This document shows, one piece after another, positions 23,668 to 57,382 of a stretch of DNA of 57,448 bases (the stretch's first letter is position 1; each line of letters begins with the position of its first letter). The position numbers were made by a program, and so were the translations under genes. The stretch is taken from the NCBI GenBank assembly GCA_964429265.1, contig CAYSBK010000001.1, positions 1 through 57,448 of the forward strand. Direction: 5' to 3'. The notes under the pieces are model-generated. The model was not told the origin of the DNA and made no database searches. It was given only the letters and a program-made list of their open reading frames with translations. This DNA is from an uncultured Pirellulales bacterium. Lineage in GTDB: Bacteria > Planctomycetota > Phycisphaerae > Sedimentisphaerales > Anaerobacaceae.

Positions 23668-23689
23668 GTGTTGATTGTGGAGCCGTAAA

Positions 23690-25371: not shown

Positions 25372-27180
25372 ATGGCGGCTCACAAAGGCCGGCAGCCGCA
25401 ACAGATGGTGTTTGAGTTTGAAGACGGACCGGGGAAAAGCGTTTTGGCCAAGGTAAAGACGAAAAAGAAACAGAAAAAGGTCAAGCCTGGAAGGAGAACC
25501 GCCAAAAGTGGTAGCCCAGCGACCCGTCGGGCCGCGAAAAAGAAGAAAACAGCATCGCGGCGAGCCGGCAGCCCGGGCCGCAGGGCCCGACGAACGGCCA
25601 CGGAGCCTGCTACTATCGCAGAGGCTATGGCCGCACAGCAACGTGCGATAAGCATCAGCGAGTTCTTTGCAAAGAACCGACACCTTCTGGGCTTCGACAA
25701 TCCGCGAAAGGCGCTTCTTACCACTGCCAAGGAGGCTGTTGATAACTCGCTCGATGCCTGTGAGGAGGGGCGCATCCTGCCGGAGCTGGTGATAAAGATA
25801 GAGCCACTGGCCGAGAACAAGTTCAGGCTCACTGTCAGGGACAACGGCCCCGGCATCGTCAAACAGCAGATACCCAACATCTTCGCCCGCCTGCTATACG
25901 GCAGCAAGTTCCACAGCCTCAGGATGAGCCGGGGCCAGCAGGGTATCGGCATATCGGCAGCGGGTATGTACGGCTTGCTCACGACGGGTGAGCCGGTGCA
26001 GATTATCTCCCGCACCGACCCCCGTAAGAAAGCACATCATTATCACGTGCAGATCGATACAACAAGAAACCGACCGGAGGTTGTGCTCGACGAGGAATGC
26101 GATTTCGAACTTCGAACCGGGACAAGGGTTACGATAACACTCGAGGGCAGGTACCAGCGAGGCCGGCAGTCGGTTGATGAGTACATTGCCCAGACGGCAA
26201 TGGCCAATCCACACGCCTCAATCTATTACGAGGCACCCGACGGCAGCAAGTACGACTATCCACGACAGACGAACGAGCTTCCGCCGAGCCCGAGGCAGAT
26301 AAAGCCGCACCCGTACGGCGTGGAGCTGGGGCTTCTGTACAAGATGGCCAGGGAAAGCCAGTTCAAGCAGTTGTCAGCCTTCCTGCAGAATGAGTTTTCC
26401 CGCGTCAGCGGGCGGGTTGCCAACCAAATCTGCGAAAAGGCAAAGCTCCGCAAGACGCTGAGGCCTTCGAAGATGACGCTGAAGCAGGCCGAGGCACTGC
26501 ATTCGGCTATAAGCAGCACCAAGATTATGGCGCCTTCGACGAACTGCATCCAGCCCATCGGCAGCGAGGCGCTTCAGCAGGGCCTCAAACGCGTGGTGAA
26601 AGCGGACTTTTACACGGCCTGCACTCGCAGTCCGGCCGTTTATCGCGGCAACCCGTTTCTGATTGAGGCGGCGCTGGCCTACGGGTTCAAGAGCAACGGC
26701 AACGGCGGCGGCACAAATGACTCCGAGCCGATGATGCGCCTGATACGGATTGCGAACCGCGTGCCCCTGCTCTACCAGCAGTCGGCCTGCGCGATTCACA
26801 AGGCGGTGCTGGATATCAACTGGCGCAACTACGCGCTGAGCCAGAGCAGAGGGGCACTGCCCAGCGGCCCGGTGGTACTTATGGTCCACGTTGCATCGGT
26901 GTGGGTCCCGTTTACTTCCGAAAGCAAGGAAGCAATCGCCCATTACCCGGAGATCACCAAGGAGATACAACTTGCCGTGCAGGAATGCGGCAGAAAACTG
27001 GGGGCGTACCTGCGAAAAAAAAGACGTATCCAGCAGGAAATGGAAAAGCGAAGATACATTGAGACCTACCTGCCCTACATCGGCGAGGCCCTGCAGCACA
27101 TCCTGTCGCTGAAGCAAAGACAGGTCGATACGCTTATCTCCAGGCTCAAAAAGGTCCTCGAAAGGTCACGAAAGGTCTGA
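25372..27180 (+). CDS. top6B: DNA topoisomerase VI subunit B (GHKL ATPase plus transducer)
   Basis: SEFFAKNRHLLGFDNPRKALLTTAKEAVDNSLDA (Bergerat N-box), DNGPGI (G1) and GQQGIGIS (G2). A long transducer region closely parallels archaeal Top6B. The start is uncertain: ATG 25372 adds a K/R-rich 85-aa tail, while ATG 25627 gives an archaeal-like N-terminus. Confidence 0.85.
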   Translation: MAAHKGRQPQQMVFEFEDGPGKSVLAKVKTKKKQKKVKPGRRTAKSGSPATRRAAKKKKTASRRAGSPGRRARRTATEPATIAEAMAAQQRAISISEFFAKNRHLLGFDNPRKALLTTAKEAVDNSLDACEEGRILPELVIKIEPLAENKFRLTVRDNGPGIVKQQIPNIFARLLYGSKFHSLRMSRGQQGIGISAAGMYGLLTTGEPVQIISRTDPRKKAHHYHVQIDTTRNRPEVVLDEECDFELRTGTRVTITLEGRYQRGRQSVDEYIAQTAMANPHASIYYEAPDGSKYDYPRQTNELPPSPRQIKPHPYGVELGLLYKMARESQFKQLSAFLQNEFSRVSGRVANQICEKAKLRKTLRPSKMTLKQAEALHSAISSTKIMAPSTNCIQPIGSEALQQGLKRVVKADFYTACTRSPAVYRGNPFLIEAALAYGFKSNGNGGGTNDSEPMMRLIRIANRVPLLYQQSACAIHKAVLDINWRNYALSQSRGALPSGPVVLMVHVASVWVPFTSESKEAIAHYPEITKEIQLAVQECGRKLGAYLRKKRRIQQEMEKRRYIETYLPYIGEALQHILSLKQRQVDTLISRLKKVLERSRKV

Positions 27181-28577: not shown

Positions 28578-29504
28578 ATGAACAGCGAAAAGTTCGAAAC
28601 CTCGAACCGCCAGATAAGGTTCATCACCAAGGTGGGGATCCTCGGCAACGTGGTCCTGTCGGTGGTGAAAGTGGTCGTCGGTGTCACTGCCGGTTCGATC
28701 TCGCTGGTGGCGGACGGCGTTCATTCGGCCTCCGATATGGCCACGGACTTCGCGGTGCTGATCGGAACCCATCTGGGTTGCAGACAACCGGACGAAAGGC
28801 ACCCATACGGGCACGGGCGGATTGAAACCCTTGCCGCGGCATTTATCGGCGTGGTGCTGGCGGCGGTGGGTTGCGGGATGATTTATCGAGCGGCTAAGGA
28901 TATCGCCGCCGGACACATTGTGACGCCGCGATTTATCGTGTTGTGGGTTGCCGGGTTGTCGATCCTCATCAAGGAGCTGTTATATAGGCTGACAAGGACC
29001 GTTGCCATTCGTACGCACAGTTCCGCGCTTTATGCAAACGCCTGGCACCACCGCTCCGATGCGATGAGCTCGGTGGCGGTGGTCGTGGGCTTCATATCCG
29101 AGCGGTTGGGTTTCATATACGGCGACCAGCTGGCAGCAGTGGCGGTAGGGTTGATGATTGTACTGGTGGCGGTCAGAGTGCTGGGTGACTGCCTGCGCGA
29201 GTTTACCGAGACAGCCACCGACCCAAAAACTATCGAGCACATAAAGAGCATCATCAGCCGGAACAAGCAGGTCCGCCAGTGGCACAAACTGAGGACCCGC
29301 ATGGTAGGCAGGGAAATATTCCTCGACCTTCACATCCTGGTCGAGCCGGAACTTACCGTTGCAGCGGCCCACGGGATAGCCGAAAAGCTTGAGCAAACCC
29401 TTCATCAGGAACTGGCCCGCCCGGCCAACATTATGATTCACATAGAACCCGACACCCCGCAGATGCGGGAAGTATCGGCCTCGGACCGCACCGAGCGCCA
29501 TTGA
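28578..29504 (+). CDS. cation diffusion facilitator (CDF) family metal efflux transporter
   Basis: Six TM helices with HSASDMATD and HHRSDAMSS metal-site motifs and a C-terminal cytoplasmic domain. Confidence 0.85.
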   Translation: MNSEKFETSNRQIRFITKVGILGNVVLSVVKVVVGVTAGSISLVADGVHSASDMATDFAVLIGTHLGCRQPDERHPYGHGRIETLAAAFIGVVLAAVGCGMIYRAAKDIAAGHIVTPRFIVLWVAGLSILIKELLYRLTRTVAIRTHSSALYANAWHHRSDAMSSVAVVVGFISERLGFIYGDQLAAVAVGLMIVLVAVRVLGDCLREFTETATDPKTIEHIKSIISRNKQVRQWHKLRTRMVGREIFLDLHILVEPELTVAAAHGIAEKLEQTLHQELARPANIMIHIEPDTPQMREVSASDRTERH

Positions 29505-29519
29505 TACGCGACCGGTACT

Positions 29520-29882
29520 TTAGCAGCCCTGGTCTGCCGACAGCAGCCATCGGTCGCCGCTGATGTGGTCGAGCGTAATCGTTGCCTTGAGGGTGCCGCC
29601 CTGCAATTGTAGCCTGAGTTGTCGGTCGGATTCACTTAGTGGCTCGTAGGTACCCTGCTCCACCCGTTGTATCCGGCCGAAACCATCGTTGACGATGCCT
29701 TGGTAGCTGAGGAATCTCAACGGATGGTCAAATATTCTGACCGCCTCGGCGGTTGCGGATGCCCATTGCTGCGGCGGCACGTTCACCCGGTAGGTCCGAA
29801 GCGCATCACCAACCTCCAACATCAGGTCCCAGTGGACCTGCTGTTGCTGCCTGCTGTGGCGGTGGATAACAAACCGTTTCAT
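29520..29882 (-). CDS. stand-alone LigD 3'-phosphoesterase-like (LigD_N) domain protein
   Basis: FVIHRHSRQQQQVHWDLMLEVGDALRTYRV resembles the FV.QKH....HYDFRLE..G.L.SWAVP core of the LigD PE domain. About 120 aa from ATG 29882. Confidence 0.6.
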   Translation of the reverse strand: MKRFVIHRHSRQQQQVHWDLMLEVGDALRTYRVNVPPQQWASATAEAVRIFDHPLRFLSYQGIVNDGFGRIQRVEQGTYEPLSESDRQLRLQLQGGTLKATITLDHISGDRWLLSADQGC

Positions 29883-30007
29883 CACCAAAGTACCTGCTAT
29901 ACCAAGAGGCGCTGACCGGGGTGCCCTCAAAAAACGCTTGCAAGGGCGCCGCTATCACAATATCTTAGGGTCTCCAATCGGGATTGCAAAAGTTAGCTGG
30001 GGTTGCT

Positions 30008-32113
30008 ATGGGTTTCGAAGATTTTCTCGATCCGAAATCGGTTGCCGTGGTTGGTGCCTCCCGACACCAGGGCAGGGTAGGCTACGAGGTGCTTGCGAAT
30101 CTCGTCAAAAGCGGGTACGGCGGTGCCATATACCCGGTCAATCCCAACGCTGATACCCTGCAGGGGCTTAAGTGTTACCCCGACATAGTGTCGATCGGAC
30201 AAACACCGGAGCTGGTCGTGGTCGTAGTTGCAGCCAAGCGAACCCCGCAGGTGATGGAACAATGCGCCCGGGTAGGGACCAAGTGTGTCATCATTATCAC
30301 CGCCGGTTTCAAAGAAACGGGCAGCGAAGGAGAAAAACTGCAGGCCAGGTTGTTGCAAATCGCCAAGCGAGCCGGCATCAGAATCCTGGGCCCGAATTCC
30401 TTGGGTGTGCTGGTTCCGGCAAGAAAACTCAACGCCAGTTTCGGCGGAGATTTGCCCGCAGCCGGTTCTGTCGGCTACATCTCGCAGTCAGGAGCGCTTC
30501 TGGCGGCGATCATCGACATCGCAAATGCCACCGGCACCGGCTTTAGCATCATGGTCAGCATCGGCAACAAGGCTGATATCGACGAGCTGGACGTTCTCAG
30601 GGTTCTCGGCAACGACCAGGCCACCGGGGTTATCGCCGGGTACCTCGAGAGTATCAACGACGGCAACGCGTTCGTCAGGGAAGCGGAACGGATATCGCGA
30701 GACAAGCCCATATTGCTGGTCAAGTCGGGCATCACCTCGGCCGGTGCCCGTGCGGTGCGCTCGCACACCGGAAGTCTCGCCGGCACTGATGCCGCCTACG
30801 AGTGCGTATTTGAGCGGGCGGGAATCATCCGATGCGACTCGATAAAGTCACAACTGAACTATGCGAGGGCTTTTACCGGCCGGTCGCTGCCCAAGGGCCG
30901 ACGTGTGGCCATCGTTACCAACGCCGGCGGGGCGGGGATTATGGCCGCCGACTACGTCGAACGCCAGGGGTTGGTTATGGCCGAGTTTTCCCAGCAGACC
31001 CTCAAGAGATTATCAGCGGTGCTGCCGACGGCGGCAAGCCTGCACAACCCCGTTGATATTCTCTGCGACGCGCTGGCAGACCGGTATGCACTGGCACTGC
31101 AAGCTGTGCTCGACGATGCAAACGTGGATATGGTGCTTGTATTGATGACCCCACAGGCTATGACGCAGGCAGCAGCGACTGCAAGGTCCGTCGTGGAGTT
31201 GTGGAGGCAGACGGACAAGCTGATCTTAGCCAGTTTCTTGGGAGCCCGGAAGGTACAGGAAGGGGCCTGCATTCTGCAAAGAGCGGGCGTGCCGTACTAT
31301 GACAGTCCGGAGGAGGCTGTTGCGGCCGCCCGGATTGTCGCTCAATACGTCGACTGGCGGAACAGGCCGAGGCGGGTGGTAAGATACTTCCCCGTTAATC
31401 GCAGAAAAGTCGAGACGATACTGGACAAACACAAAAGACGCGGCAGCACGCAGATCGGCGAGATCGAGGCGAAAGAGATACTCGAGGCCTACGGGTTTGC
31501 GGTGCCCACCGCCGCGGTTGCCACGACGGCCGAGCAGGCTGCCAACATCGCGGAAGAAATTGGTTTTCCGGTGGCATTGAAGATATGGTCGCCCGAGATA
31601 ATCCACAAAATGGATGTCGGGGGAGTGAAGCTCGGCCTCAAGACGGGGCAGGAGGTTATGGATGCCTTCGACCTTATGATGTACAGGATTCCGAAGCTCG
31701 CGCCTCAGGCCAACATACTGGGCGTGGTGGTGCAGGAAATGATAAGCAGGGGAAAGGAGGTCATCCTCGGGATGTACCGTGACCCACAATGTGGGCCGGT
31801 TATGATGTTCGGAATGGGCGGAACGATGGTGGAGGTGCTCAGCGACGTCTCGTTTTACCTGGCGCCGCTGACGGCCGAAGAGGCAAGGCAGATGCTGGTC
31901 GCAACCAAAACCTACCGGATGCTCAGGGGGCTGCGGGGCGAACAGCCGGTGGACATCGATGCGATTGCCGAAGCGCTGCAGAGACTTTCGCAACTTGCCA
32001 CCGAGTTTCCGCAGATCCAGCAGATGGACATAAATCCCTTCGCGGTAGGTCCGAAGGGAACCACACCCGTGGCTGTTGACGCCAGAATCAGCCTCGAAAC
32101 CGGCCAATCATAG
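30008..32113 (+). CDS. ADP-forming acetyl-CoA (acyl-CoA) synthetase, fused alpha-beta type, paralog 1
   Basis: CoA-binding N-terminus (SVAVVGASRHQGRVG) and phosphohistidine loop SHTGSLAG. Ligase-CoA domain and C-terminal ATP-grasp (GFPVALKIWSPEIIHKMDVGGV). Confidence 0.85.
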   Translation: MGFEDFLDPKSVAVVGASRHQGRVGYEVLANLVKSGYGGAIYPVNPNADTLQGLKCYPDIVSIGQTPELVVVVVAAKRTPQVMEQCARVGTKCVIIITAGFKETGSEGEKLQARLLQIAKRAGIRILGPNSLGVLVPARKLNASFGGDLPAAGSVGYISQSGALLAAIIDIANATGTGFSIMVSIGNKADIDELDVLRVLGNDQATGVIAGYLESINDGNAFVREAERISRDKPILLVKSGITSAGARAVRSHTGSLAGTDAAYECVFERAGIIRCDSIKSQLNYARAFTGRSLPKGRRVAIVTNAGGAGIMAADYVERQGLVMAEFSQQTLKRLSAVLPTAASLHNPVDILCDALADRYALALQAVLDDANVDMVLVLMTPQAMTQAAATARSVVELWRQTDKLILASFLGARKVQEGACILQRAGVPYYDSPEEAVAAARIVAQYVDWRNRPRRVVRYFPVNRRKVETILDKHKRRGSTQIGEIEAKEILEAYGFAVPTAAVATTAEQAANIAEEIGFPVALKIWSPEIIHKMDVGGVKLGLKTGQEVMDAFDLMMYRIPKLAPQANILGVVVQEMISRGKEVILGMYRDPQCGPVMMFGMGGTMVEVLSDVSFYLAPLTAEEARQMLVATKTYRMLRGLRGEQPVDIDAIAEALQRLSQLATEFPQIQQMDINPFAVGPKGTTPVAVDARISLETGQS

Positions 32114-32132
32114 CTGCGATGTGGAGCGACTT

Positions 32133-34244
32133 ATGAGCCTCGAAGTTTTTTTTAATCCGAAGTCGACCGCCGTTGTTGGTGCTTCGCGCCACAAGGGCAA
32201 AGTGGGATATGAAATCATAGCGAATATGATACGCGCCGGCTACGCGGGAAAGCTGTGGCCGATAAACCCGAAGGCAGACCAGATTGAAGGCCTTAAGTGT
32301 TTTCCAGACCTTCGCTCGTTGCCGGAGGTGCCGGAGCTTGTGGTCATAGTGGTGCCCGCCCCGGCCGTACCAGAGGTAATGCAGCAGTGTGCCGATGTCG
32401 GTGTGAAAGCCGTGATTATCATTACGGCCGGCTTCAAGGAAGTAGGGCGACACGGCCGTGAACTTGAACAGCGGGTGGTCCAGATCGCACGGCAGGCCGG
32501 AATACGGGTCATAGGGCCGAACTGTTTGGGCGTGATAGTGCCTGCAAGCAAACTGAACGCCAGTTTCGCTGCGGAGATGCCACGGTGCGGCAACATCGCG
32601 TACCTGTCGCAGTCTGGGGCGCTGCTGACGGCTATCCTGGACATCGCCGTCGCCAACGACATAGGCTTCAGCAAACTTGTCAGCATCGGAAACAAGGCGG
32701 ATGTTGACGAACTCGACATCATAGAGGCTCTTGCCGAGGACGATGATACCCGGGTAATTGCCGGCTACCTCGAGAGCGTCTCGCAGGGTGATGCATTTGT
32801 GCGACAGGCTGAGCAGATATCACACAGCAAGCCGATATTGCTGATGAAGTCGGGCGGCACGGGCGCCGGCGCAAAGGCGGCGTCATCGCATACCGGCAGC
32901 CTTGCCGGCAGTGAAACGACGTACGAGGCCGCCTTTGCCCGAGCCGGTGTGGTTCGTTGTGACTCGATCAAGGACCAGTTCGACTACGCTCAGGCCTTTG
33001 CATACCAGCCGTTACCAGAGGGAAACCGCGTTGCGGTCATAACCAATGCAGGCGGACCAGGTATTATGGCGGCCGACGCCGTCGAACGGCAGGGCCTGTC
33101 GTTTGCAAAGTTTTCACAGCAGACCGTTGGGGCGCTTCGAGGCAAGCTGCCTGCTGAGGCCAATCTCTTGAACCCGGTTGACGTTCTCGGTGATGCCCGG
33201 GCCGACCGTTACCAACTGGCGATGGATGCCGTTCTGGCCGACGCCAATGTTGACGCGGTGCTGGTACTGTTGACCCCGCAGGCGATGACCGAGCCGGCGC
33301 GAACGGCGCAGGTGGTGGTCGAATCGGCTGCCGGCGGCGGGTCAAAGCCGGTGCTGGCGTGCTTTCTGGGTGGGGCAAAGGTTGCCGAGGCGTTGAGGAT
33401 ACTGCGGCAGGGTCGTGTCCCCCCGTATGACTCGCCGGAAAGCGCGGTCGCGGCCCTCAAGGCGATGTGCGACTATGCACGATGGCGCCGCAGGCCGAAG
33501 CGCATCGTCAAGCTGTTCGCCGTGAACCGCAGGAAGGTTGAGGCGATAATCGAAAGGCACCTGCGGCAAGGTATAAGAGAGATACCGGAGAGCGAATCGA
33601 AAGAGATACTCGAGGCATACGGCTTTCTTACTCCGAAGGGCGCCGTCGCCACCGACGCCGACCAGGCGGTGGAGATCGCCCGCCAACTCGGTTACCCCGT
33701 GGTGCTGAAGATATGGTCTCCGGACATTCTGCACAAGTCGGATGTCGATGGTGTCCAACTCGGACTTTCGACCGACAAGCAGGTACGTGATGCTTTTGAC
33801 CTTATGATGTACCGAATACCCAAGAAGATGCCCCGGGCGAAGATACTGGGCGTGCTCGTTCAGCAGATGTGCGGCGGCGGCCGGGAAGTGATTCTGGGTA
33901 TGAAGCGGGACCCCCACTTCGGGCCTTTGATGATGTTCGGAATGGGTGGGACGATGGTTGAAGTGCTCAAGGACGTTTCGTTTTACCTGGCGCCGCTGAC
34001 GGCCGAGGAAGCCAAGCAGATGCTCACAAGCACAAGAACGTACAGGATGCTTGAGGGCGTCCGAGGCCAGGAAGGCGTAGATATAGACGCCTTGGCCGAG
34101 GGTCTGCAGCGACTTTCGCAATTGGTGACGGAGTTTCCTCAAATCCAGGAGATGGACATAAATCCGTATATCGTCGGACCGCCCGGCACGACGCCCGTAG
34201 CCGTGGACGCCAGGATAAGCGTCGAGGCAGTTACAAGGGGATAA
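32133..34244 (+). CDS. ADP-forming acetyl-CoA (acyl-CoA) synthetase, fused alpha-beta type, paralog 2
   Basis: Same architecture as paralog 1, and collinear with it along the full length (VVGASRH, IIITAGFKE, SQSGALL, SHTGSLAG, MMFGMGGTMVEVL). It starts 19 nt after paralog 1. Confidence 0.85.
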   Translation: MSLEVFFNPKSTAVVGASRHKGKVGYEIIANMIRAGYAGKLWPINPKADQIEGLKCFPDLRSLPEVPELVVIVVPAPAVPEVMQQCADVGVKAVIIITAGFKEVGRHGRELEQRVVQIARQAGIRVIGPNCLGVIVPASKLNASFAAEMPRCGNIAYLSQSGALLTAILDIAVANDIGFSKLVSIGNKADVDELDIIEALAEDDDTRVIAGYLESVSQGDAFVRQAEQISHSKPILLMKSGGTGAGAKAASSHTGSLAGSETTYEAAFARAGVVRCDSIKDQFDYAQAFAYQPLPEGNRVAVITNAGGPGIMAADAVERQGLSFAKFSQQTVGALRGKLPAEANLLNPVDVLGDARADRYQLAMDAVLADANVDAVLVLLTPQAMTEPARTAQVVVESAAGGGSKPVLACFLGGAKVAEALRILRQGRVPPYDSPESAVAALKAMCDYARWRRRPKRIVKLFAVNRRKVEAIIERHLRQGIREIPESESKEILEAYGFLTPKGAVATDADQAVEIARQLGYPVVLKIWSPDILHKSDVDGVQLGLSTDKQVRDAFDLMMYRIPKKMPRAKILGVLVQQMCGGGREVILGMKRDPHFGPLMMFGMGGTMVEVLKDVSFYLAPLTAEEAKQMLTSTRTYRMLEGVRGQEGVDIDALAEGLQRLSQLVTEFPQIQEMDINPYIVGPPGTTPVAVDARISVEAVTRG

Positions 34245-34248
34245 CGGT

Positions 34249-36117
34249 ATGCAGCAGGTTGACTGGCAGCAGCGATACAAAGACAAGATCGGTACGGCCG
34301 CGGCGGCGGTAAAGCTCATAAAGCCCGGCAGCAGCATCTTCATAGGCACGGGATGTGCCCAGCCGAGGCACCTTGTGCGTGCCCTTGTCGAACACTCCAG
34401 CCACATCTACGACGCTCACATAATACATCTTCTGACTATGGGTGAGGCACCCTATGCCGATGAGAAGTTCCGGGAAAAGTTCAAGACGAACAGTTTCTTT
34501 ATCGCCGACAACATCCGCGATGCGGTGCAAAAAGGTATCGGCGACTACACCCCCATGTTTCTTTCGGAGATACCGCTCGAATTTGAAAGCGGGCGAATCC
34601 CCATTGATTTCGCCTTCATCACCGTTACGCCGCCGGATGCCAACGGCTTGTGCAGCCTGGGTGTTTCTGTGGATATCGTCAAGTCGGCAGCGTCCAACGC
34701 CCGCTTTGTGGTGGCCCAGGTCAACAGCAGGATGCCCCGAACCCTCGGCGACAGCTTCCTGCATGTCAGCGGTATCGATATGCTGGTGCCCTGGGACGAG
34801 GACGTTATCGAGGTCCCAGTGCCTGAATCAGACGAGGTATTGCGCGGAATCGGTCGCAATATCGCCAGGCTGGTCGAGGACGGCAGCACCATTGAGTGTG
34901 GCATAGGCCGAATACCGCAGGCCCTGGCCGAGTTCCTCAAGGACAAGCGAGACCTCGGCGTGCACACCGAAATGTTCGGTGACTGGATTATCGACCTTAT
35001 CGAGTGCGGTGCGATCACCTGCGCGAAAAAGACGCTGAATCGTGGAAAGGTCGTCGCCAGTTTCTGTATGGGTTCAAGGCGTTTATATCATTACATAAGC
35101 GACAATCCTATGTTTGAGTTCCATCCCACCGAGTACGTCAACGACCCGCAAATCATCGCCCGGCACGAAAAGATGGTGGCCATCAATGTGGGACTCGAAA
35201 TCGACGTGACGGGGCAGGTCTGTGCCGATTCTCTTGGCTATCAGTTTTACAGCGGCTTCGGAGGCCAGGTTGATTTCATCCGCGGCGCAGCACGAAGCAG
35301 GGGCGGAAAACCCATCATCGCGATGCCTTCAACCGCCAAGGACGGGCAGGTCTCGCGAATCGTACCACACCTGACCGAGGGAGCCGGCGTCGTCACTACC
35401 CGCGGTGACGTGCACTACGTTGTTACCGAGTACGGCATCGCGTACCTGCACGGAAAGAACATACGGGAAAGATGTCTCGAATTGATAAACATCGCTCATC
35501 CAAAGTTTCGAAAAGAACTTGTTCGCGCCGCAAAAACGCAGAAATACATCTACGAGGACCAGATCGAGCTTTCGTGGGAGCAGTTGCGATATCCGGAAGA
35601 GCTGCAGAGGTACGAGACGCTTCGTGACGGCACTCAAATATTCTTTAGGCCCGTCAAGCCAAGCGACGAGCCGGCACTGTCGCAGATGCTTTATTCGCTC
35701 AGCGAGGAATCGGTTCGCAAAAGGTATATGGCGCGCACAAGGGCCTTTCCACACAAGGACGTTCAGCAGCTGACGAACATAGATTACAAGAACAACCTTG
35801 CCATCGTGGGCGTGGTGCCGGGCGTTTCGGGCGAAGAGATAGTGGCGATTGCACAGTACTTCCTCGACCCGAAGACCGCCGTGGCCGAAGTTGCTTTTCT
35901 TGTGCAGGACGAGTGGCAACGGAAAGGAATGGGTACGCTGCTGCTGGATTACCTGACAGAAATCGCCCGCAAGCGCGGTGTAAAGAGGTTCTGCGCAACC
36001 GTTCTGCCCGGCAACAAGCCGATGCTGTCGATCTTCAACAATTCGCGGTACAAGGTTAACACCGAGTTCGACGGAGAGCTTTATACGATATGGTACGACC
36101 TGGACAGCAAAAAGTAA
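34249..36117 (+). CDS. acetyl-CoA hydrolase/CoA-transferase domain fused to a Pat-type GNAT (putative protein lysine acetyltransferase)
   Basis: N-terminal 4-hydroxybutyrate CoA-transferase-like region with GVHTEMFGD (catalytic Glu context) and GFGGQVDF. C-terminal GNAT with LRDGTQIFFRPVKPSDEPAL and QRKGMGTLLL acetyl-CoA loop. Confidence 0.85.
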   Translation: MQQVDWQQRYKDKIGTAAAAVKLIKPGSSIFIGTGCAQPRHLVRALVEHSSHIYDAHIIHLLTMGEAPYADEKFREKFKTNSFFIADNIRDAVQKGIGDYTPMFLSEIPLEFESGRIPIDFAFITVTPPDANGLCSLGVSVDIVKSAASNARFVVAQVNSRMPRTLGDSFLHVSGIDMLVPWDEDVIEVPVPESDEVLRGIGRNIARLVEDGSTIECGIGRIPQALAEFLKDKRDLGVHTEMFGDWIIDLIECGAITCAKKTLNRGKVVASFCMGSRRLYHYISDNPMFEFHPTEYVNDPQIIARHEKMVAINVGLEIDVTGQVCADSLGYQFYSGFGGQVDFIRGAARSRGGKPIIAMPSTAKDGQVSRIVPHLTEGAGVVTTRGDVHYVVTEYGIAYLHGKNIRERCLELINIAHPKFRKELVRAAKTQKYIYEDQIELSWEQLRYPEELQRYETLRDGTQIFFRPVKPSDEPALSQMLYSLSEESVRKRYMARTRAFPHKDVQQLTNIDYKNNLAIVGVVPGVSGEEIVAIAQYFLDPKTAVAEVAFLVQDEWQRKGMGTLLLDYLTEIARKRGVKRFCATVLPGNKPMLSIFNNSRYKVNTEFDGELYTIWYDLDSKK

Positions 36118-36129
36118 CGAGAAGAAGAT

Positions 36130-37266
36130 GTGAATCAGAAGAAATCGGTTTTCATATACTCTGAAGAACTTGAGAAGTACAGCTATCCACCGGACCATCC
36201 CTTCAACACCATCAGAGCGACAAGGGTGCGGCAGATTGCAGATTCGATGGGCCTGCTGAGCGGTCCCGGCAGAAGCGAGGTCCCGCCGCAGCCGGTCGAC
36301 AGGATAACCCTGAAAAAGTTTCACACGGCCAGGTACCTGCACGCATTGAGGCTGGCCGGGCAGGGACGTTTCGACCCCGAGGCGATACGCATGGGCATCG
36401 GCACTGGTGATTGCCCCGCCTTCGAGGGCGTGTACGAGTATTCGGTCCTGGCGGCCGGCGGTACCGTAACGGCTGCAAGGATGATACTGGATGGTACGGC
36501 CGACATCGCTTTCAACCCATCGGGTGGGTTTCATCACGCCGGACCGGAAAAGGCTTCGGGGTTCTGCTACATCAACGACGTTGTACTGGGCTGTATGATA
36601 CTGGCCGAGGCCGGCAAACGCGTGCTCTATCTCGATGTCGATGTTCACCACGGCGACGGTGTCGCCTATGCGTTTTATAACAGAAGCGACGTTATGACAA
36701 TCTCATTCCACGAGAATCCCCGGGCTTTCTTTCCGGGCACGGGTTTCGAGGACGAAACAGGCGCTGATGCCGGCAAAGGCTACTGCGTAAACGTTCCGCT
36801 GCCGGTGGGAACATTCGACGAGGCGTACTTAACCGCATACAATGAGTTGGCCGTGCCTCTGATAAAGGCGTACCAACCCGACGTTTTTGTTTTCGAGTTG
36901 GGCGCCGACGCCCTTGCCGGCGACCCGCTGGCCCATCTCTGTCTCACCAACAACGCGTATGCCGAGATAATCCAGAGCCTGCTGAGCTTCGGCAGGCCGA
37001 TTCTTATGACAGGAGGCGGCGGCTACAACGTCGACAACACGGTCCGTGCCTGGACGCTGGCGTGGAGCCTGCTGGCCGGCGGACCAACCGACGCCGAGGC
37101 CAATCTCGGAGCGGGCGGTGTTATGCTCGGAAGCACCGAGTGGCAAGGAGGACTGCGCGACAGGACGCAGGTGATAGGCCAGCGCCAGAGGGACATCGTA
37201 ACCGCAGCCGTCCGGCAGGTCATCGAAAGGGTCAAGGCGAACGTGTTTGCAATCCACGGGCTGTAG
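36130..37266 (+). CDS. acuC: histone-deacetylase-family (AcuC-like, Zn-dependent) protein/acetoin deacetylase
   Basis: GGFHHAGPEKASGFCYIND, DVDVHHGDG and GGGGYN motifs. GTG start 12 nt after the GNAT fusion. Confidence 0.85.
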   Translation: MNQKKSVFIYSEELEKYSYPPDHPFNTIRATRVRQIADSMGLLSGPGRSEVPPQPVDRITLKKFHTARYLHALRLAGQGRFDPEAIRMGIGTGDCPAFEGVYEYSVLAAGGTVTAARMILDGTADIAFNPSGGFHHAGPEKASGFCYINDVVLGCMILAEAGKRVLYLDVDVHHGDGVAYAFYNRSDVMTISFHENPRAFFPGTGFEDETGADAGKGYCVNVPLPVGTFDEAYLTAYNELAVPLIKAYQPDVFVFELGADALAGDPLAHLCLTNNAYAEIIQSLLSFGRPILMTGGGGYNVDNTVRAWTLAWSLLAGGPTDAEANLGAGGVMLGSTEWQGGLRDRTQVIGQRQRDIVTAAVRQVIERVKANVFAIHGL

Positions 37267-37338
37267 AGTTCCGGTGCGCACAGACGAACACCCGAATACG
37301 AGGTCGGGGCACCGGGTCTTGCCGGAGGAATACCGGCG

Positions 37339-37935
37339 TTACCGCACGGCCCCCAGCGGCAGAACGGCCCGCCCAAAGACCTCGTTCAATACCTGAGCAA
37401 AAGCCGTGTAAACAGCCGACAACCCGCAGAAGATACCTTCATATCCCGCCAAGGTCGCGATGAAGGTGTTGCCTGTGGCGTCCTTGATGGCCAGCAGGAA
37501 GAACAACACGGCCAGTGAACCGAATACAACCTGAAGCGCCTTGTTCAACCTGAGCGTGCCGACAAACATCACCGTGGTGAACACGCCCCACATCAACAGG
37601 TAAGCAACCATCGCGCCGGTTGCCGGAGCACCGGCAAGCCCCATTTTCGGCATAAGTATCAGGCCAACCAGCGTTAACCAGAACAGCCCATACGAGCAGA
37701 ACGCGGTCGTGCCGAAGGTGTTACCCTTTTTCCACTCCATAACGCCCGCTATTATCTGCGCCAGGCCGCCGTAGAAGATTCCCATTGCAAGGATCATTGA
37801 GCCCAGTCCGAAAAGGCCGGCGTTGTGCAGGTTTAGCAGCACCGTGGTCATTCCGAAGCCCAGCAGGCCAAGCGGTGCCGGGTTGGCCGTCGTATCCTTT
37901 ACGGTCAACAGATGTTCGTCAGTCTGATTCTGCAT
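37339..37935 (-). CDS. satP: GPR1/FUN34/YaaH-family acetate/succinate channel (SatP-like)
   Basis: [14 protein letters not shown] signature, six TM helices, YGLFWL. Strong AAGGAG RBS before ATG 37935. Confidence 0.85.
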
Positions 37936-38014
37936 AGACACTTCTCCTTTGCTTATGGCGGATTTGCTCAACAAATCGAAAGAGGTTTTACAAACCCTGT
38001 GCCCCCTTGTAGCC

Positions 38015-39994
38015 TTAACCGCGGCCCCTGATCAACGCCTCGACGACGCCGGGGTCGGCCAACGTGCTGATGTCGCCGAGGTCCTCGGTCCTTCGCTCGG
38101 CTATCTTGCGAAGGATCCTGCGCATAATCTTGCCCGACCGTGTCTTGGGAAGGGCTGCAGCAAATTGAATCGCCTCGGGCGCGGCGATGGGGCCGATTTC
38201 CTTGCGAACGTGCATAATCAGCTCTTTCTTCAGTTGCTCGCTTTCCTCGACCCCTTCGACAAGTGTCACGAAGGCATACAGGGCCTGGCCCTTGACCTCG
38301 TGTGGGATTGGCGTAACGGCCGCCTCGGAAACTTTGTCGTGGCTTACCAGCGCGCTTTCCACCTCGGCGGTGCCGATGCGATGGCCGGAGACGTTGACCA
38401 CGTCGTCGATTCTGCCCATAAGCCAGTAATCACCGTCTTCGTCAATTCTGCAACCGTCGCCGGTGAAGTACACGTTCTCGAACATCGTGAAGTAAGTGTC
38501 GATGAACCGCTGGTGGTCGCCCCACATCGTTCGCATCATTCCGGGCCACGGCCTGCGAATGCACAGCTTGCCGCCTTCGTTGACATCGCATTGGGTGCCG
38601 TCGTCTCGCAGCACAACCGGGTCGACGCCGAAGAAGGGTCGGCTGGCACTTCCCGGCTTTAGAGTGTGTGCACCCGGCAGCGGCGTAATGAGTATCCCGC
38701 CTGTTTCGGTCTGCCACCACGTGTCAACGATTGGGCATCGGCCTCGACCGATCTTCTCGTGGTACCATATCCAGGCCTCCGGGTTGATTGGTTCGCCCAC
38801 CGAACCCAGTATCCGAAGCGTATCCAGTTTGTACTTTGCCGGCCACTCGTCACCCAGCCGCATCAACGCTCGAATGGCGGTCGGCGCGGTGTAGAATATC
38901 GTTACGCCGAACTTGTCGCAGATATGCCAGAACCGGCCCGCATCCGGGTAGGTCGGCACCCCCTCAAACATCAGGGAAGTTGCACCGTTGGCCAGGGGCC
39001 CGTAAACAATGTAGCTGTGGCCGGTCACCCACCCTATATCAGCGGTGCACCAGTAAATATCATCGTCGTGCACGTCGAAGATCACCTTGTGACTGAAGGC
39101 CACGTGCAGAAGATACCCGCCAGTGGTATGAACGACACCCTTCGGCTTGCCGGTCGAGCCTGAGGTATAGAGAATGAACAAGGGGTCCTCGGCGTTCATC
39201 CGCTCGGGTTCGCACTCCTGCGGGGCATCGGCCATCAACTCGTGATACCACTGGTCCCGGCCGGGTTGCATCTCACAAGGGTCATCGGCGACCTTCACCA
39301 CGATAACACCCTCAATGCTCGGGGTGTTCTTCAGCGCCTGGTCCGCGATGGCTTTCAGGCCGATCCGCTTGCCAGCCCGCAGCGACACGTTGCTGGTAAT
39401 CAGCAACCTGCAGTCCGAATCGTTTATCCTGCCTTCCAGGGCCTCGGCGCTGAATCCGCCGAACACCACCGAGTGAATCGCCCCTATCCGCGCGCAGGCC
39501 AGCATCGCCACCGGCAATTCCGGAACCATCGGAAGGTAAATCGCCACGCGGTCGCCCTTCTTGATGCCCTTCGACTTCAGCACGTTGGCGAACTTGCAAA
39601 CCTCCTTGTGGAGCTGTTCATAGGTGTACTTGCGAACGGCATCCTCGGCCTCGCCCTGCCAGATAATGGCGGTCTTTTTCGCCACGGGCGTACCAAGGTG
39701 CCGGTCGAGGCAGTTGTAGCTGGCGTTAAGTTCGCCGTCCGCGAACCACCTGTGCTCAACCTTGCGGGCGGCGGTGTCCCAGGTGTATTCCAGACTCTTG
39801 GTGGGTTCCCTGAACCAGGACAGCATCCTGGCCTTCTCCAGCCAGAAACCGTCCGGGTCGTTCAGTGACTGCTGCCACATCTTTTGCCATTGTTCGAAGC
39901 TGTTGATGTAGGCCTTGTTTTGTATCTCGGCCGGCGGCGCAAATGTCCGCTTCTCGCTCATCAACGAATCAATCGCCTTCTGTTCACTGCTCAT
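38015..39994 (-). CDS. acs: acetyl-CoA synthetase (AMP-forming)
   Basis: [19 protein letters not shown] and C-terminal [11 protein letters not shown] (the regulatory/catalytic Lys codon is at 38129-38131). Full-length, 659 aa. Confidence 0.95.
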
Positions 39995-40122
39995 AACACA
40001 CCCCTTCTGTTACAACCACGTCTGCTCGAAAAGCCAAAACTTTCTTTGGAATCTGCAGAGACCAAGATTTTACGGACCTGTTCAAAAGTATCAACCAAAA
40101 ACCCCGGAAACTTCGATGTTTC

Positions 40123-41514
40123 TCAAAACCTGTATATAAACGAGCCCTGAAACCTCAGGTCATCCGCATCACCCGGGCCCCTGTACTCGGTTTTCCAGTG
40201 AGAAACCTCAATGCCGATCTCCGTGTTGGCATCGAGGTGGTAAATGGCATTGCCGAAGACCGAACGGTTGAGCACTCTGTCGCCGGTGCCGACATCATCG
40301 GAATCGACATCGTCAATCCCGCAGCCGATATTAAAGCTCCAGTTATCCCAGGGCCCCAGTGTGGCGGCTGCCCATCCGCCCCGGCTGTCAATTTCGTGAA
40401 GCCGGGTTGTGTTGACGCCCTGGCCGATACCGCCGAAGTAGCTGTCCAAGTCCCGGCCCGTAAACAATTCCCCTTTGACGGTGAGCCACGAGCAAACGGG
40501 CTGGTTCAGGTCGAGGTTCAGCGACCAGCTTTCGAAGTCCTTGTTACTGCCGCCGGTGTTCGGGTCGTATTCCTCCGTCCCGTAATGGCCCGAGAATCCG
40601 ATTGTCGCAGGCTTGTACCCCAAGCCGGGAAAAGTCAGACCGATACGCCCCTGCACGGTGGGAAAGCCCGCGTCTTCGCCAGTTTCGGAACCGGTCAGGT
40701 CATTTCTGCCGATGGTTCTCGATATTGCAGCCTGCAAGTTTACATTGATATCCTTTTGAACCTGGAAATCTTTTGTAACCCGTACCTGCGGATGCCTGTA
40801 GCCGATATTGCCAGCGTCCCACAAGACGGTATAGTTCAGTGTCCGCGGCACCAGCGGCGATATCACGTCGGAGGTTTGCCCCGCCAGAATACCAAAGTGA
40901 TCGCCCGGCCAGTCGAGCGTCAGGTATGCGTGGCGCATCTGGATCTTTGCCTTATTCTCAGCGGCGTAGTTGCCGTAGAAATCCACCTCCAGCCGACCGG
41001 CCGCGCTGAAACCATTCTCTGCCGGGCCTTTGATTCGCATACCCACCCTGGTCTCGTTGGCGGTAACGTTGAATTCGTCGTCGTTGTTGCGCTGGTCCTC
41101 GCGGTCGAGATATACCACGTAATTGCCCGGATGGCTGCGCGACGTATCGTAGGATGCGTCCGCCTTAAGAAACCCATAGATTTCAATATCCAGATTTGAC
41201 GATACGTTTTTCTTCGGTGGTGCCGCTGGCGCAGGTGCCGCAGCCTTGCCAGGCCGATCCGTGGAAGGCGCGGTGCTGGTTGCCGCTGCCGTGCCGCGTT
41301 CGCGACCGGCGGTAACGGTGCCATTCTGGGTCAATACTATCTGCTTTAGCTGTGAAAGCTCTTTTTCGAGCATTTCGACTCTTTTGCGAAGCTCCGCGTT
41401 CTGTCTGGCCAGGTCCTCAAGGTCGTCGGCCCTGCACAGAGCCGTGGCGACGGCTGCCACGCACATACACGCAACAACTGTGTTTTTGCTCATAACCGGT
41501 GCCCTTTGTTTCAT
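40123..41514 (-). CDS. outer-membrane beta-barrel porin with N-terminal coiled coil (DcaP-like architecture)
   Basis: Signal peptide, heptad-rich LEDLARQNAELRKRVEMLEKELSQLKQIV, and a P/A-rich linker. Then alternating-hydrophobic beta strands ending in the OMP terminal motif FQGSFIYRF. Confidence 0.7.
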   Translation of the reverse strand: MKQRAPVMSKNTVVACMCVAAVATALCRADDLEDLARQNAELRKRVEMLEKELSQLKQIVLTQNGTVTAGRERGTAAATSTAPSTDRPGKAAAPAPAAPPKKNVSSNLDIEIYGFLKADASYDTSRSHPGNYVVYLDREDQRNNDDEFNVTANETRVGMRIKGPAENGFSAAGRLEVDFYGNYAAENKAKIQMRHAYLTLDWPGDHFGILAGQTSDVISPLVPRTLNYTVLWDAGNIGYRHPQVRVTKDFQVQKDINVNLQAAISRTIGRNDLTGSETGEDAGFPTVQGRIGLTFPGLGYKPATIGFSGHYGTEEYDPNTGGSNKDFESWSLNLDLNQPVCSWLTVKGELFTGRDLDSYFGGIGQGVNTTRLHEIDSRGGWAAATLGPWDNWSFNIGCGIDDVDSDDVGTGDRVLNRSVFGNAIYHLDANTEIGIEVSHWKTEYRGPGDADDLRFQGSFIYRF

Positions 41515-41866
41515 CTTCGCTCGTATTGTGCTGCCGCCGGCCTGATTCCGGCACCGCTGCGGCCGTAGAGACCGGATGCCGGCGGCCCTTCTTTGTCCTG
41601 TCCGGAACCCGCTGTGGCTTGGTTACAGCGGTCCGGAACATCCGCGGACAAGAAATCCTATAACTTACGATATTGCGCTGCACAGGTCAAGTGACTAAAT
41701 CTGAAATTCCGCCATCTTGTGGAAACGGGCAGCTTTGTTGCCGGCGTTAGCACCGCAGGCCGAGGAGGGACCCTATCTGCCGGGAATGCACGCTCCACGG
41801 CAGGTTCGGCCGGGTACCGATGTCGAATGAGCGGATTCAAAATTTAGCAAAAAAACAGAAAAATCG

Positions 41867-41895
41867 TTGCCGGCTGGCGTACCGTGGTGTATAAT
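41867..41895 (+). promoter_or_regulatory. strong sigma70-type promoter (TTGCCG - 17 nt - TATAAT) with A-rich upstream element
   Basis: -35 at 41867-41872, consensus -10 TATAAT at 41890-41895, preceded by the A-rich tract 41839-41866. The next plus-strand gene is the RRM protein, about 340 nt downstream. Confidence 0.5.
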
Positions 41896-42243
41896 TCGGC
41901 CGTGAACTGAATATTGGAATGGCCGGGAGATGAAGCGTTAAGCTGTTTTGGATCGACCTCGGATACTTGTGGCCCCTCGATTAATCCGCCTTCATTTCTC
42001 CTCCGCTGTAAAGGGTATCTCAGAAGCGCCCGTGTGCACGACAACAGTACGCTCATTGCCGGTCTCGGCAGCCTTAATCAATTGCGTCACCAATCGGGGG
42101 GCTGTGCAGGTCTGTTCGAGTGATGCGCGGGCGGTCGGAGGCTCCCTGTTAGCCGGCCTGTTGGGTCGATGTGTGTACACCACCGGAATCGGAAGACGGA
42201 CGGTGTTTCCTGGACGACGTTTGTGGACTGGAAAGGAAAGGCA

Positions 42244-42552
42244 ATGAACATCTATGTTGGTAATCTCTCGTACGACGTGACCGACGAGGATTTGCGAGAG
42301 AGCTTCGGGGCATTCGGCCAGGTGGAGTCGGCTACGGTGATCAAGGACAAGTTCACCGGCGAATCCAGAGGCTTCGGTTTTGTCGAGATGCCTTCGAGGA
42401 CCGAGGCACAATCTGCGATCGAGGGTCTCGACGGGAAGGATTTGAAAGGTCGAACCGTGCGCGTCAACGAGGCTCGCCCGAGGGCCGAGGGCCATCGTCG
42501 CGGCCGAGGTGGCGGGTTCGACAGAAGTTCCGGCGGCCGCAAAAGATATTGA
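42244..42552 (+). CDS. RRM-type RNA-binding protein with RGG-rich tail
   Basis: RNP2 IYVGNL and RNP1 RGFGFVEM. C-terminal tail HRRGRGGGFDRSSGGRKRY. Confidence 0.9.
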   Translation: MNIYVGNLSYDVTDEDLRESFGAFGQVESATVIKDKFTGESRGFGFVEMPSRTEAQSAIEGLDGKDLKGRTVRVNEARPRAEGHRRGRGGGFDRSSGGRKRY

Positions 42553-42737
42553 CAAACCATAATCACTTCCGCGACTCCGTCCGGCGTCCAGGCGCCGGGC
42601 ACGCACGCTGATTACTTGCCGGCTTGGTCGTTGACAACCCCTGCCTGCGATTGGTACAAGGTCCCAGCGAGCCGATGCTCGTAGTGCGGGCTCGGCCAGG
42701 CAGAGAAAAGGTCCCCGTCTTGTTGAAGGAGCCGAGG

Positions 42738-47433: not shown

Positions 47434-47442
47434 GATTGCTGT

Positions 47443-47679
47443 ATGTGCCTGGCGATTCCTGCAAGGATAGTTGAGCTTGATGGTGACAGGGCGACGGTTG
47501 AGGCGATGGGCAACCGCTGGCGGGCAAAGACTACGCTGCTGCCGGATGCCCGCGTCGGGCACCTTGTTCTTGTACACGCCGGCTTCGCCATATCACTGGT
47601 CGACGAAAAACAAGCCCAGCAGACCTGGCAGCTTCTTGCGCAGATTCAGCAGGCCGGCCAGAAAAACGAAAATGATTGA
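47443..47679 (+). CDS. hypC: hydrogenase maturation chaperone HypC
   Basis: N-terminal MCLAIPARIVEL with the essential Cys2. 78 aa. Confidence 0.9.
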   Translation: MCLAIPARIVELDGDRATVEAMGNRWRAKTTLLPDARVGHLVLVHAGFAISLVDEKQAQQTWQLLAQIQQAGQKNEND

Positions 47680-47696
47680 GACGGGTTTGAGCGATT

Positions 47697-50142: not shown

Positions 50143-50146
50143 CCGG

Positions 50147-55925: not shown

Positions 55926-57382
<1,457 letters not shown>

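Follow-up and report, generated by a model that had tools for sequence, protein, structure and literature searches.

How a bacterium apparently equipped both to form and to assimilate acetate could keep the two directions from running against each other is the question raised by a gene cluster of an uncultured Pirellulales bacterium (GTDB lineage Bacteria; Planctomycetota; Phycisphaerae; Sedimentisphaerales; Anaerobacaceae). The cluster lies in the stretch of 57,448 nucleotides analyzed here (the window; GenBank assembly GCA_964429265.1, contig CAYSBK010000001.1, positions 1 to 57,448 of the forward strand, which make up the entire contig). Reversible lysine acetylation of Acs, an acetyl-CoA synthetase of the AMP-forming kind, is a textbook case of bacterial post-translational metabolic control. 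A prediction made earlier from the sequence alone (the original prediction) had described the cluster as an acetate/acetyl-CoA island that joins both directions of the acetate switch to a lysine acetylation control module, and the genes that it described are present where it placed them. Open reading frame (ORF) calls, Pfam, and NCBIfam give seven genes at positions 30008-41514 (Table 1). Four plus-strand genes encode two ADP-forming acyl-CoA synthetases (ACD1 and ACD2), a protein in which a CoA-transferase is fused to a GNAT acetyltransferase domain (the fusion), and an HDAC-like lysine deacetylase; three convergent minus-strand genes encode the acetate channel SatP, Acs, and a putative outer-membrane porin. 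We think it moderately probable that this cluster is a chromosomal acetate/acetyl-CoA node built around a reversible lysine acetylation module. The domain assignments of the original prediction were all borne out, those of the fusion and the class I HDAC fold among them, and so was the target lysine of Acs; its interpretation as a whole stood in part, with the domains and the conservation of gene order for it and the gene count, the island, and the constancy of SatP and the porin against it.

A Pat-type acetyltransferase domain fused to a putative CoA-transferase

Residues 1 to 430 of the fusion belong to the AbfT family of CoA-transferases and are followed by a linker and, at about residues 447 to 620, by a Pat-type GNAT domain (Pfam domains AcetylCoA_hydro, AcetylCoA_hyd_C, and Acetyltransf_1). 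In the PDB, the N-terminal domain matched 4-hydroxybutyrate CoA-transferases of the AbfT branch (E values of 1e-135 to 1e-107). E241, in the motif HTEMF, aligns with the catalytic E238 of AbfT, and the oxyanion motif SGFGGQ is present; both domains, the catalytic Glu, and the GXGGQ motif of family I CoA-transferases are thus all found. The fusion scored 278.7 against TIGR03948 (cut-off, 674.8), NCBIfam has no model for it, and its database labels do not go beyond “GNAT family N-acetyltransferase” or “acyl-CoA hydrolase.” All significant PDB matches of the GNAT domain were protein lysine acetyltransferases, namely, PatZ of Escherichia coli (7e-23), the GNAT domain of Streptomyces PatA (SlPatA; 8e-21), MtPat (2e-15), MsPat, and Sulfolobus Pat. 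The residue aligned with the catalytic E809 of PatZ is E547, and the acetyl-CoA P-loop reads QRKGMG (Q-x-x-G-x-G), features that place the domain in the Pat clade. Proteins about 80% identical to the fusion come from metagenome-assembled genomes of Sedimentisphaerales and Phycisphaerae. Among about 50 diverse fusions, the Glu and GGQ of the CoA-transferase and the Glu and P-loop of the GNAT domain were nearly always kept (rows L003, L032, L059, and L075, for which the automatic ORF choice was in the wrong frame, were excluded from this comparison). The CoA-transferase domain occupies the place of the Pat sensor domain and, judged by these residues, appears enzymatically competent; the conservation of its catalytic Glu and GGQ makes substrate turnover by this domain probable as well. 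An AlphaFold2 model of the fusion, built from an alignment of 14 sequences of about 80% identity, was set aside (mean pLDDT, 45.5; pTM, 0.33).

Bacterial lysine acetyltransferases have been sorted into types I to V, the regulatory domains of which are ACD-like, cAMP-binding, ACT, or NADP-binding or are missing (PMC8556138, PMC12184503; the latter also surveyed AFDB). In Pat/PatZ, the GNAT domain is turned on allosterically by an ACD-like domain that binds acetyl-CoA and contributes to the pocket for Acs (PMC12184503, PMC8556138); this ACD-like domain lacks the catalytic histidines (PMC8556138). The Pat/PatZ GNAT domain of Salmonella and E. coli is the closest solved relative of that of the fusion. 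The two have in common the catalytic Glu, the P-loop, and a YP-x-x-L motif before the GNAT core; in both, several hundred residues that form an acyl-CoA-binding domain come before the GNAT domain, and the presumed target is the lysine of the PX4GK motif of Acs. However, whereas the N terminus of Pat/PatZ is ACD-like and has no catalytic histidines, that of the fusion is an AbfT-family CoA-transferase with an intact catalytic Glu, and here the ACD is a separate, intact gene product that keeps its histidines. The fusion is thus neither a type I nor a type II Pat. Type III enzymes (MtPat, MaPatB, and MxKat), in which a cAMP-, ACT-, or NADP-binding domain comes before the GNAT domain, are related to it through the significant matches of its GNAT domain to MtPat and MsPat, but their N terminus is a small ligand-binding module, whereas that of the fusion is a complete enzyme of about 430 aa, which falls outside the type I-V scheme (PMC8556138, PMC12184503). 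The locus points instead to a sixth arrangement, an intact CoA-transferase joined to a Pat-type GNAT domain. A full-text literature search returned no CoA-transferase::GNAT lysine acetyltransferase and no ACD-linked acetylation control, a negative result that does not prove that none has been described. The control of the acetate node by reversible lysine acetylation is already known; the abundant fusion architecture appears to be uncharacterized.

The fusion is paired with an ACD gene across phyla

A pattern scan of one genome per species gave at least 599 confirmed matches to the CoA-transferase, and the best 80 were examined; 58 were complete fusions, 19 were stand-alone CoA-transferases, and 3 were cut by a contig end. 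The stand-alone loci, which encode CoA-transferases of similar sequence, served as a natural control. When loci with at least 2.3 kb of upstream DNA were counted, an ACD gene stood directly upstream on the same strand at 26 of 48 fusion loci and at 0 of 16 stand-alone loci (Fisher p = 6e-5), with a median gap of about 44 nt between alignment ends. An HDAC homologue within the flank was found at 11/58 fusion loci and 0/19 stand-alone loci (Fisher p = 0.056), and the counts for Acs within the 10-kb flank were the same (11/58 and 0/19; Fisher p = 0.056). The most strongly conserved linkage is therefore that of ACD with the fusion, not that of Acs with the fusion; this tightest link had not been singled out by the original prediction. 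The record labels of the loci with an upstream ACD are widely spread: Sedimentisphaerales, Phycisphaerae, Planctomycetales, Acidobacteriota, Lentisphaerae, Verrucomicrobiota, Kiritimatiellae, Fibrobacterota, Chitinispirillaceae, Delongbacteria, Trueperaceae, Thermoleophilia, Deltaproteobacteria, and Desulfobacterales. Acs was found near the fusion in distant phyla and in archaea (L003, L011, L013, L018, L027, L035, L039, L042, and L044). Of these loci, L039 is from a MAG assigned to Chthonomonas calidirosea, and at the Thorarchaeota locus L044, two fusion genes stand in tandem close to Acs and an MFS transporter. At two Thermoplasmatota loci (L047 and L056), an ACD gene, a gene for a DRTGG/AAA_26 protein, the fusion gene, and then a gene for an ACD beta subunit follow one another; the DRTGG + AAA_26 protein has 343 aa (L047:7113-8144 and L056:8839-9870). 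PFOR adjoins the fusion at L054, and an AckA/Pta-like fusion and an Acs-like ligase lie near the CoA-transferase::GNAT fusion at L070.

An exhaustive search with the GNAT domain gave 4,942 representatives (of clusters at 50% identity) at an E value of ≤1e-10. The best 150 of these comprised 43 CoA-transferase::GNAT fusions, 9 ACD-linked (Pat-like) proteins, 83 short proteins or fragments, and 15 proteins with other N- or C-terminal extensions. For the fusion itself, at least 8,000 word-sharing candidates were obtained at an E value of ≤0.001. The fusion is thus abundant, spans many bacterial phyla and several archaeal lineages, and is genetically tied to ACD, a Zn-dependent deacetylase, and Acs. 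The size of two proteins, P0148 (960 aa) and P0157 (967 aa), and the GNAT domain at their C terminus could suggest type I Pat, but they were rejected as such. They have an N terminus of about 330 aa with 4Fe-4S ferredoxin-type motifs, followed by CoA-transferase and GNAT domains, and this Fer4-CoA-transferase-GNAT order suggests a redox-linked version of the same acetyltransferase.

The two ADP-forming synthetases as possible partners of the fusion

ACD1 and ACD2 are 64% identical. Both carry CoA_binding, Succ_CoA_lig, Ligase_CoA_2, and ATP-grasp_5 domains in the five-subdomain architecture (Pfam), and each can be aligned from end to end with 8wzu and with the alpha and beta subunits of 4xyl. 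The catalytic histidines lie in RSHTGSLAG (His-alpha) and IIHK (His-beta) in ACD1 and in SSHTGSLAG and ILHK in ACD2, and both enzymes are likely to be catalytically intact and are predicted to be competent. The score of ACD2 (588.6) lies above the cut-off of the acetate–CoA ligase alpha model TIGR02717 (567.15), whereas that of ACD1 (535.2) lies below it; both are far under the NCBIfam cut-offs of the 4-hydroxybutyrate and 3-hydroxypropionate ligase equivalogs. Of the two, it is ACD2 that is orthologous to the fusion-proximal ACD of relatives (70 to 75% identity in L083, L084, and L085), and ACD1 is a paralogue that has diverged further. Both histidines are retained in partner ACDs across phyla, the divergent L040 excepted, and both are missing from type I/II Pat representatives.

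With so tight a pairing, the functional partner or target of the fusion could be ACD instead of Acs, and the proximity of Acs could be secondary. The GNAT domain might then acylate ACD or the CoA-transferase domain and throttle the formation of acetate and ATP, or ACD might dock in trans as the regulatory domain of PatZ does in cis. The adjacency itself, by far the strongest conserved signal and present in many bacterial phyla, argues for such a role, as do the two Thermoplasmatota loci, where ACD lies upstream at a distance of two genes and an ACD beta subunit lies downstream. The homology of ACD2 to the PatZ regulatory domain extends over the whole of ACD2 (1.6e-106), and PatZ needs that domain for its GNAT activity and for the form of its Acs-binding pocket (PMC12184503). 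Seven lysines, including one beside the second catalytic His, are at least 93% conserved in partner ACDs and would be candidate sites, but conserved lysines are expected in any enzyme, and the ACDs lack a PX4GK motif. The adjacency is equally explained by a shared pathway, and the literature search returned no acetylation control of ACD. We know of no precedent for the regulation of ACD by acetylation, and on this evidence we regard ACD as an unlikely principal partner or target.

A further possibility, which we put forward tentatively and with a low probability, is that the fusion and a live upstream ACD make up an unrecognized, widespread class of acetyltransferases gated by a working enzyme, which would also be the precursor of type I Pat. 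The gate would be either the catalytic state of the CoA-transferase or a trans complex with ACD (a “split Pat”), and type I Pat would have arisen by loss of the CoA-transferase and fusion of ACD to the GNAT domain. Such a direct fusion exists in P0166, a metagenomic, N-terminally truncated protein of 625 aa in which an ACD with both His motifs runs directly into a Pat-type GNAT domain without a CoA-transferase domain. Its ACD part is 50% identical to residues 104 to 541 of ACD2, and the junction lies inside the ATP-grasp domain; P0166 stems either from a natural deletion within an ACD-fusion operon or from a chimeric assembly.

The deacetylase, Acs, and the predicted acetate channels

The product of the last plus-strand gene matched PF00850 at 4e-81, with Clr6, Rpd3, HDAC8, and HDAC1/2 as its best PDB matches (1e-70 to 1e-61). 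The motifs GGFHHA, DVDVHHGDG, GADALAGD, and GGGGY are intact in the alignment, as in class I Zn-dependent deacetylases; there was no NCBIfam match. On the opposite strand, Acs scored well above the cut-offs of NF001208 (1037.7 versus 657) and TIGR02188 (998.2 versus 724.95), in keeping with an AMP-forming equivalog. The codon that the original prediction had given for the target lysine (38129-38131) is exact: it is an AAG codon on the minus strand for K622, within the motif PKTRSGK. Among the seven cluster proteins, Acs alone has a PX4GK motif. SatP matched the acetate uptake transporter equivalog NF038013 (285.6 versus a cut-off of 50) and PF01184 (2.4e-40). The assignment of the porin is weaker than those of Acs and SatP; the match to PF19577 (DcaP; 33.1 versus a cut-off of 27) is partial, covering model positions 66 to 210 of 410, and is accompanied by a predicted signal peptide, an N-terminal coiled coil, and a C-terminal Phe.

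The closest precedent for this grouping is Bacillus subtilis acsA, which lies beside acuABC; acetylation by the GNAT protein AcuA shuts AcsA off, and the class I deacetylase AcuC restores its activity (PMC13121692, PMC11255334). As in the window, a GNAT protein and a class I Zn-dependent deacetylase are cotranscribed there, the operon lies beside an acs gene on the opposite strand, and Acs has the C-terminal lysine (PMC13121692, PMC11255334). The likeness of the window deacetylase to AcuC is one of class I membership, drawn from matches to other class I HDACs. There are also clear differences. AcuA is a single-domain protein, whereas here a Pat-clade GNAT domain is fused to a CoA-transferase; the Bacillus operons are divergent and include acuB (Bateman + ACT domains), whereas here the operons converge and there is no AcuB. 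One or two ACD genes lead the operon here, and SatP and the porin accompany Acs, unlike in acsA/acuABC. With respect to AcuB, the seven genes and their immediate neighbors encode no CBS or ACT domains (Pfam), and the sole ACT domain nearby is that of PGDH. The deacetylase also sets the cluster apart from Pat systems, in which Pat is paired with the sirtuin CobB, whereas the enzyme here is Zn dependent.

In haloarchaea and in some bacteria with an “acetate switch,” as proposed here, ACD forms acetate and ATP and Acs assimilates acetate (see also PMC11784441, PMC7416134). Unlike in those systems, ACD and Acs are here clustered with an acetyltransferase/deacetylase pair and with acetate channels. 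To our knowledge, neither clustering nor post-translational coupling has been described for those acetate switch systems. The original prediction knew of no description of the arrangement, and the full-text search likewise turned up none.

Gene order in close relatives

Six loci of close relatives were looked up by protein; ACD-fusion-HDAC was present in 6/6, and Acs lay within 10 kb on the opposite strand in 4/6. At L084 and L086, ACD-fusion-HDAC converges on SatP-Acs as in the window, and at L002 and L005 about 3 kb of other DNA separates ACD-fusion-HDAC from SatP-Acs. L085 has ACD-ACD-fusion-HDAC, an inserted TIR/DUF4231 segment, and then MFS-Acs-DcaP porin; L083 has ACD-ACD-fusion-HDAC, and the minus-strand group is absent within 10 kb; and L082 has a frameshifted ACD, the fusion, and HDAC, with MFS-Acs about 9 kb away. 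The tandem ACD pair of the window is thus also found at L083 and L085. HDAC orthologues (64 to 69% identity) follow the fusion at L081 to L086, SatP orthologues (about 71% identity) adjoin Acs at L002, L005, L084, and L086, and the L085 porin, also labeled DcaP, is 51% identical to that of the window and stands beside Acs. SatP is replaced by an MFS transporter at L082 and L085, and the porin is absent from L084 and L086. Of the synteny expected from the original prediction, the converging core and, at L085, the Acs-DcaP pair were therefore recovered, and SatP and the porin proved variable. From these arrangements, the plus-strand operon is the core that stays constant; in most cases, Acs lies close by on the opposite strand, and transporter and porin are interchangeable accessories.

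The variability of the minus-strand group, together with the insertions that part the two groups at L002, L005, and L085 and the absence of that group at L083, would fit a neighborhood made by chance or local genome history, in which the two groups are functionally unlinked. Yet Acs recurs near the fusion in distant phyla and archaea and at none of the 19 stand-alone loci, and the same logic is established for acsA/acuABC. Because the control loci lack these neighbors, we consider a chance neighborhood very improbable.

Several features of these loci stand apart from the gene order. The L085 insertion (L085:13315-16312) holds a TIR_2 + DUF4231 pair and DUF433 and DUF6623 genes between HDAC and the MFS-Acs-porin group and looks like a defense-type insertion into the cluster. 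L081 and L082, about 1.1 Mb apart on CP070678.1, are two copies of a partial or frameshifted ACD, the fusion, and HDAC with identical fusion proteins, which looks like a recent segmental duplication. Just downstream of HDAC at L082 are genes for an ornithine/arginine decarboxylase and a deoxyhypusine-synthase-like protein.

A model for acetate control and its alternatives

In the model that we favor, ACD1 and ACD2 would convert acetyl-CoA, ADP, and Pi to acetate and ATP during fermentative growth. While acetyl-CoA is abundant, the GNAT domain would acetylate K622 of Acs and block the adenylation half-reaction, which would prevent an ATP-wasting cycle between ACD and Acs. As acetyl-CoA falls, the HDAC-like enzyme would deacetylate Acs, and acetate would be scavenged; the porin and SatP would let acetate in through both membranes, and Acs would provide AMP-forming activation. 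The CoA-transferase domain would replace the dead ACD-like sensor of Pat and couple acetyltransferase activity to the acyl-CoA/carboxylate state, and it may also feed acyl-CoAs into the ACD reaction. We propose the direction of the ACDs and the sensing role of the CoA-transferase by analogy with acsA/acuABC and Pat/PatZ, and we infer Acs as the probable target from the Pat/AcuA precedents and from its PX4GK motif, the only one in the cluster. If the model holds, it would explain how ACD-based acetate fermenters avoid a futile cycle with Acs, and it would open a direct way to ask how cells sense their pools of acyl-CoA and carboxylate; should the model fail, the close pairing of ACD with the fusion would still call for an explanation.

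A number of observations weigh against this model. Acs lies within 10 kb of the fusion at only 11 of the 58 loci, and because the ACD-fusion linkage rather than the Acs-fusion linkage is the most conserved, we stop at calling Acs the presumed target; ACD adjoins the fusion at about half of the loci, which would fit ACD, or nothing in the cluster, as the target. A cotranscribed acetyltransferase and deacetylase need an extra layer of control, which AcuB provides in Bacillus, and the cluster lacks an AcuB-like gene. The closest solved relative of ACD2 is an ADP-forming 4-hydroxybutyrate–CoA ligase, ACD1 falls under the acetate-ligase cut-off, and neither acetate preference nor running direction can be read from the ACD sequences. 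The intact CoA-transferase domain may simply be a metabolic enzyme. Finally, promoter and terminator scans of positions 29400-42700 yielded no more sites than expected by chance (7 versus 4.9 ± 2.3 in shuffled sequence and 13 versus 13.7 ± 4.0).

Some of these points would also suit a purely metabolic grouping, a CoA-transferase/ACD cycle that turns acyl-CoAs into acids and ATP via acetyl-CoA, analogous to the ASCT/SCS cycle; alternatively, the substrate could be another short-chain acid (4-hydroxybutyrate, butyrate, or succinate), with the GNAT domain and HDAC acting on unrelated proteins or small molecules. The retention of the CoA-transferase Glu and GGQ in nearly all fusions and of both ACD histidines is what such a cycle would predict, the best solved relatives are labeled 4-hydroxybutyrate CoA-transferase and 4-hydroxybutyrate–CoA ligase, and the low ACD1 score and the polyamine genes that adjoin HDAC at L082 point the same way. 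Against it, the GNAT domain is a permanent part of the fusion and has conserved catalytic residues, and its significant solved relatives are all protein lysine acetyltransferases; the deacetylase is of class I, like AcuC, and not of the class II-like type that acts on acetylated polyamines; and HDAC and Acs co-occur with the fusion and not with stand-alone CoA-transferases. ACD2, moreover, passes the acetate–CoA ligase alpha cut-off, and the equivalogs matched by Acs and SatP are specific for acetate. We therefore hold a purely metabolic grouping to be quite unlikely.

Coordinates, expression signals, and flanking genes

With regard to the boundaries of the cluster, the original prediction had set its start at 29984. 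ACD1 most likely starts at ATG 30008 rather than at TTG 29984, because the resulting 701 aa fits the 700 to 702 aa of relatives. For ACD2, whose start is 32133, the exact 703-aa sequence is a cluster representative in the protein collection, and SatP most likely starts at ATG 37935, which gives 198 aa, as in relatives. These starts reproduce the plus-strand gaps of 19, 4, and 12 nt given earlier. The “eight adjacent genes” of the original prediction came down to seven, eight being reached only as domains' worth when the fusion is counted twice. The 204-aa ORF upstream of the porin on the same strand, a candidate for an eighth gene, was left out; 477 nt separate it from the porin, and it has no Pfam match and no homologue in the fetched loci.

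Table 1. Positions of the cluster genes and other features in the window
Feature	Length (aa)	Position	Strand	Basis
ACD1, alpha-beta fused NDP-forming acyl-CoA synthetase	701	30008-32113	+	Pfam
ACD2, NDP-forming acyl-CoA synthetase	703	32133-34244	+	Pfam, TIGR02717
CoA-transferase::GNAT fusion	622	34249-36117	+	Pfam, PDB matches
Class I Zn-dependent HDAC-like lysine deacetylase	378	36130-37266	+	PF00850, PDB matches
SatP/AceTr acetate channel	198	37339-37935	-	PF01184, NF038013
Acs, AMP-forming acetyl-CoA synthetase		38015-39994	-	NF001208, TIGR02188
DcaP-like outer-membrane porin	463	40123-41514	-	Partial PF19577 match, sequence features
Promoter-like element TTGCAA, 17-nt spacer, TATCTT		29938-29966	+	Read from sequence
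Promoter-like site TTGATA, 16-nt spacer, TAAAAT (10/12 matches)		40067-40094	-	Consensus scan
ORF upstream of porin	204	41992-42606	-	
PGDH		23675-25279		
Topoisomerase VI B-subunit-like gene		25372-27180	+	HATPase_c, Topo-VIb_trans
Hydrogenase maturation genes hypF, hypD, hypE, hypB		45097-50809		
tRNA-Phe		55926-55998	+	
Tyrosine recombinase (phage integrase family) ORF		55937-57382	-	

The word “island,” in the sense of acquired DNA, did not hold. The GC content is 0.56 to 0.59 within the cluster and 0.56 to 0.62 across the remainder of the window, housekeeping genes flank the cluster, and the upstream flank (PGDH-TopoVIB-PGM-CDF) is syntenic at L084 and L086. The cluster is therefore a conserved chromosomal one, and a genomic island was ruled out.

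The promoter-like element ahead of ACD1 lies about 42 nt upstream of the start codon and falls under the threshold of the consensus scan, so that it is weak evidence; an alignment showed a comparable pair (TTGCAA or TTTACA, with TAnAAT) upstream of the orthologous operon in 7 relatives. The site ahead of Acs, about 73 nt upstream of its start codon, is suggestive only. No meaningful inverted repeats were found in four intergenic regions, and no recognizable terminator was found in the convergent gap of 72 nt between HDAC and SatP (37267-37338). The stops of the two genes, 72 nt apart in the window, are about 19 nt apart at L084 (13018-13036). The opposed HDAC and SatP transcripts may overlap, and antisense interference is possible.

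Downstream of the cluster, after a tRNA-Ala gene, the hydrogenase maturation genes are consistent with an H2-metabolizing anaerobe and fit a fermentative role of the ACDs. In the upstream flank, the topoisomerase VI B-subunit-like gene stands between PGDH and the phosphoglucomutase gene without an adjacent topoisomerase VI A/Spo11 gene, a placement that is the same at L084 and L086 and is unusual in bacteria. Near the end of the window, the end of the tRNA-Phe gene is overlapped by the tyrosine recombinase ORF, the usual signature of an integrative element, which would lie past the end of the contig.

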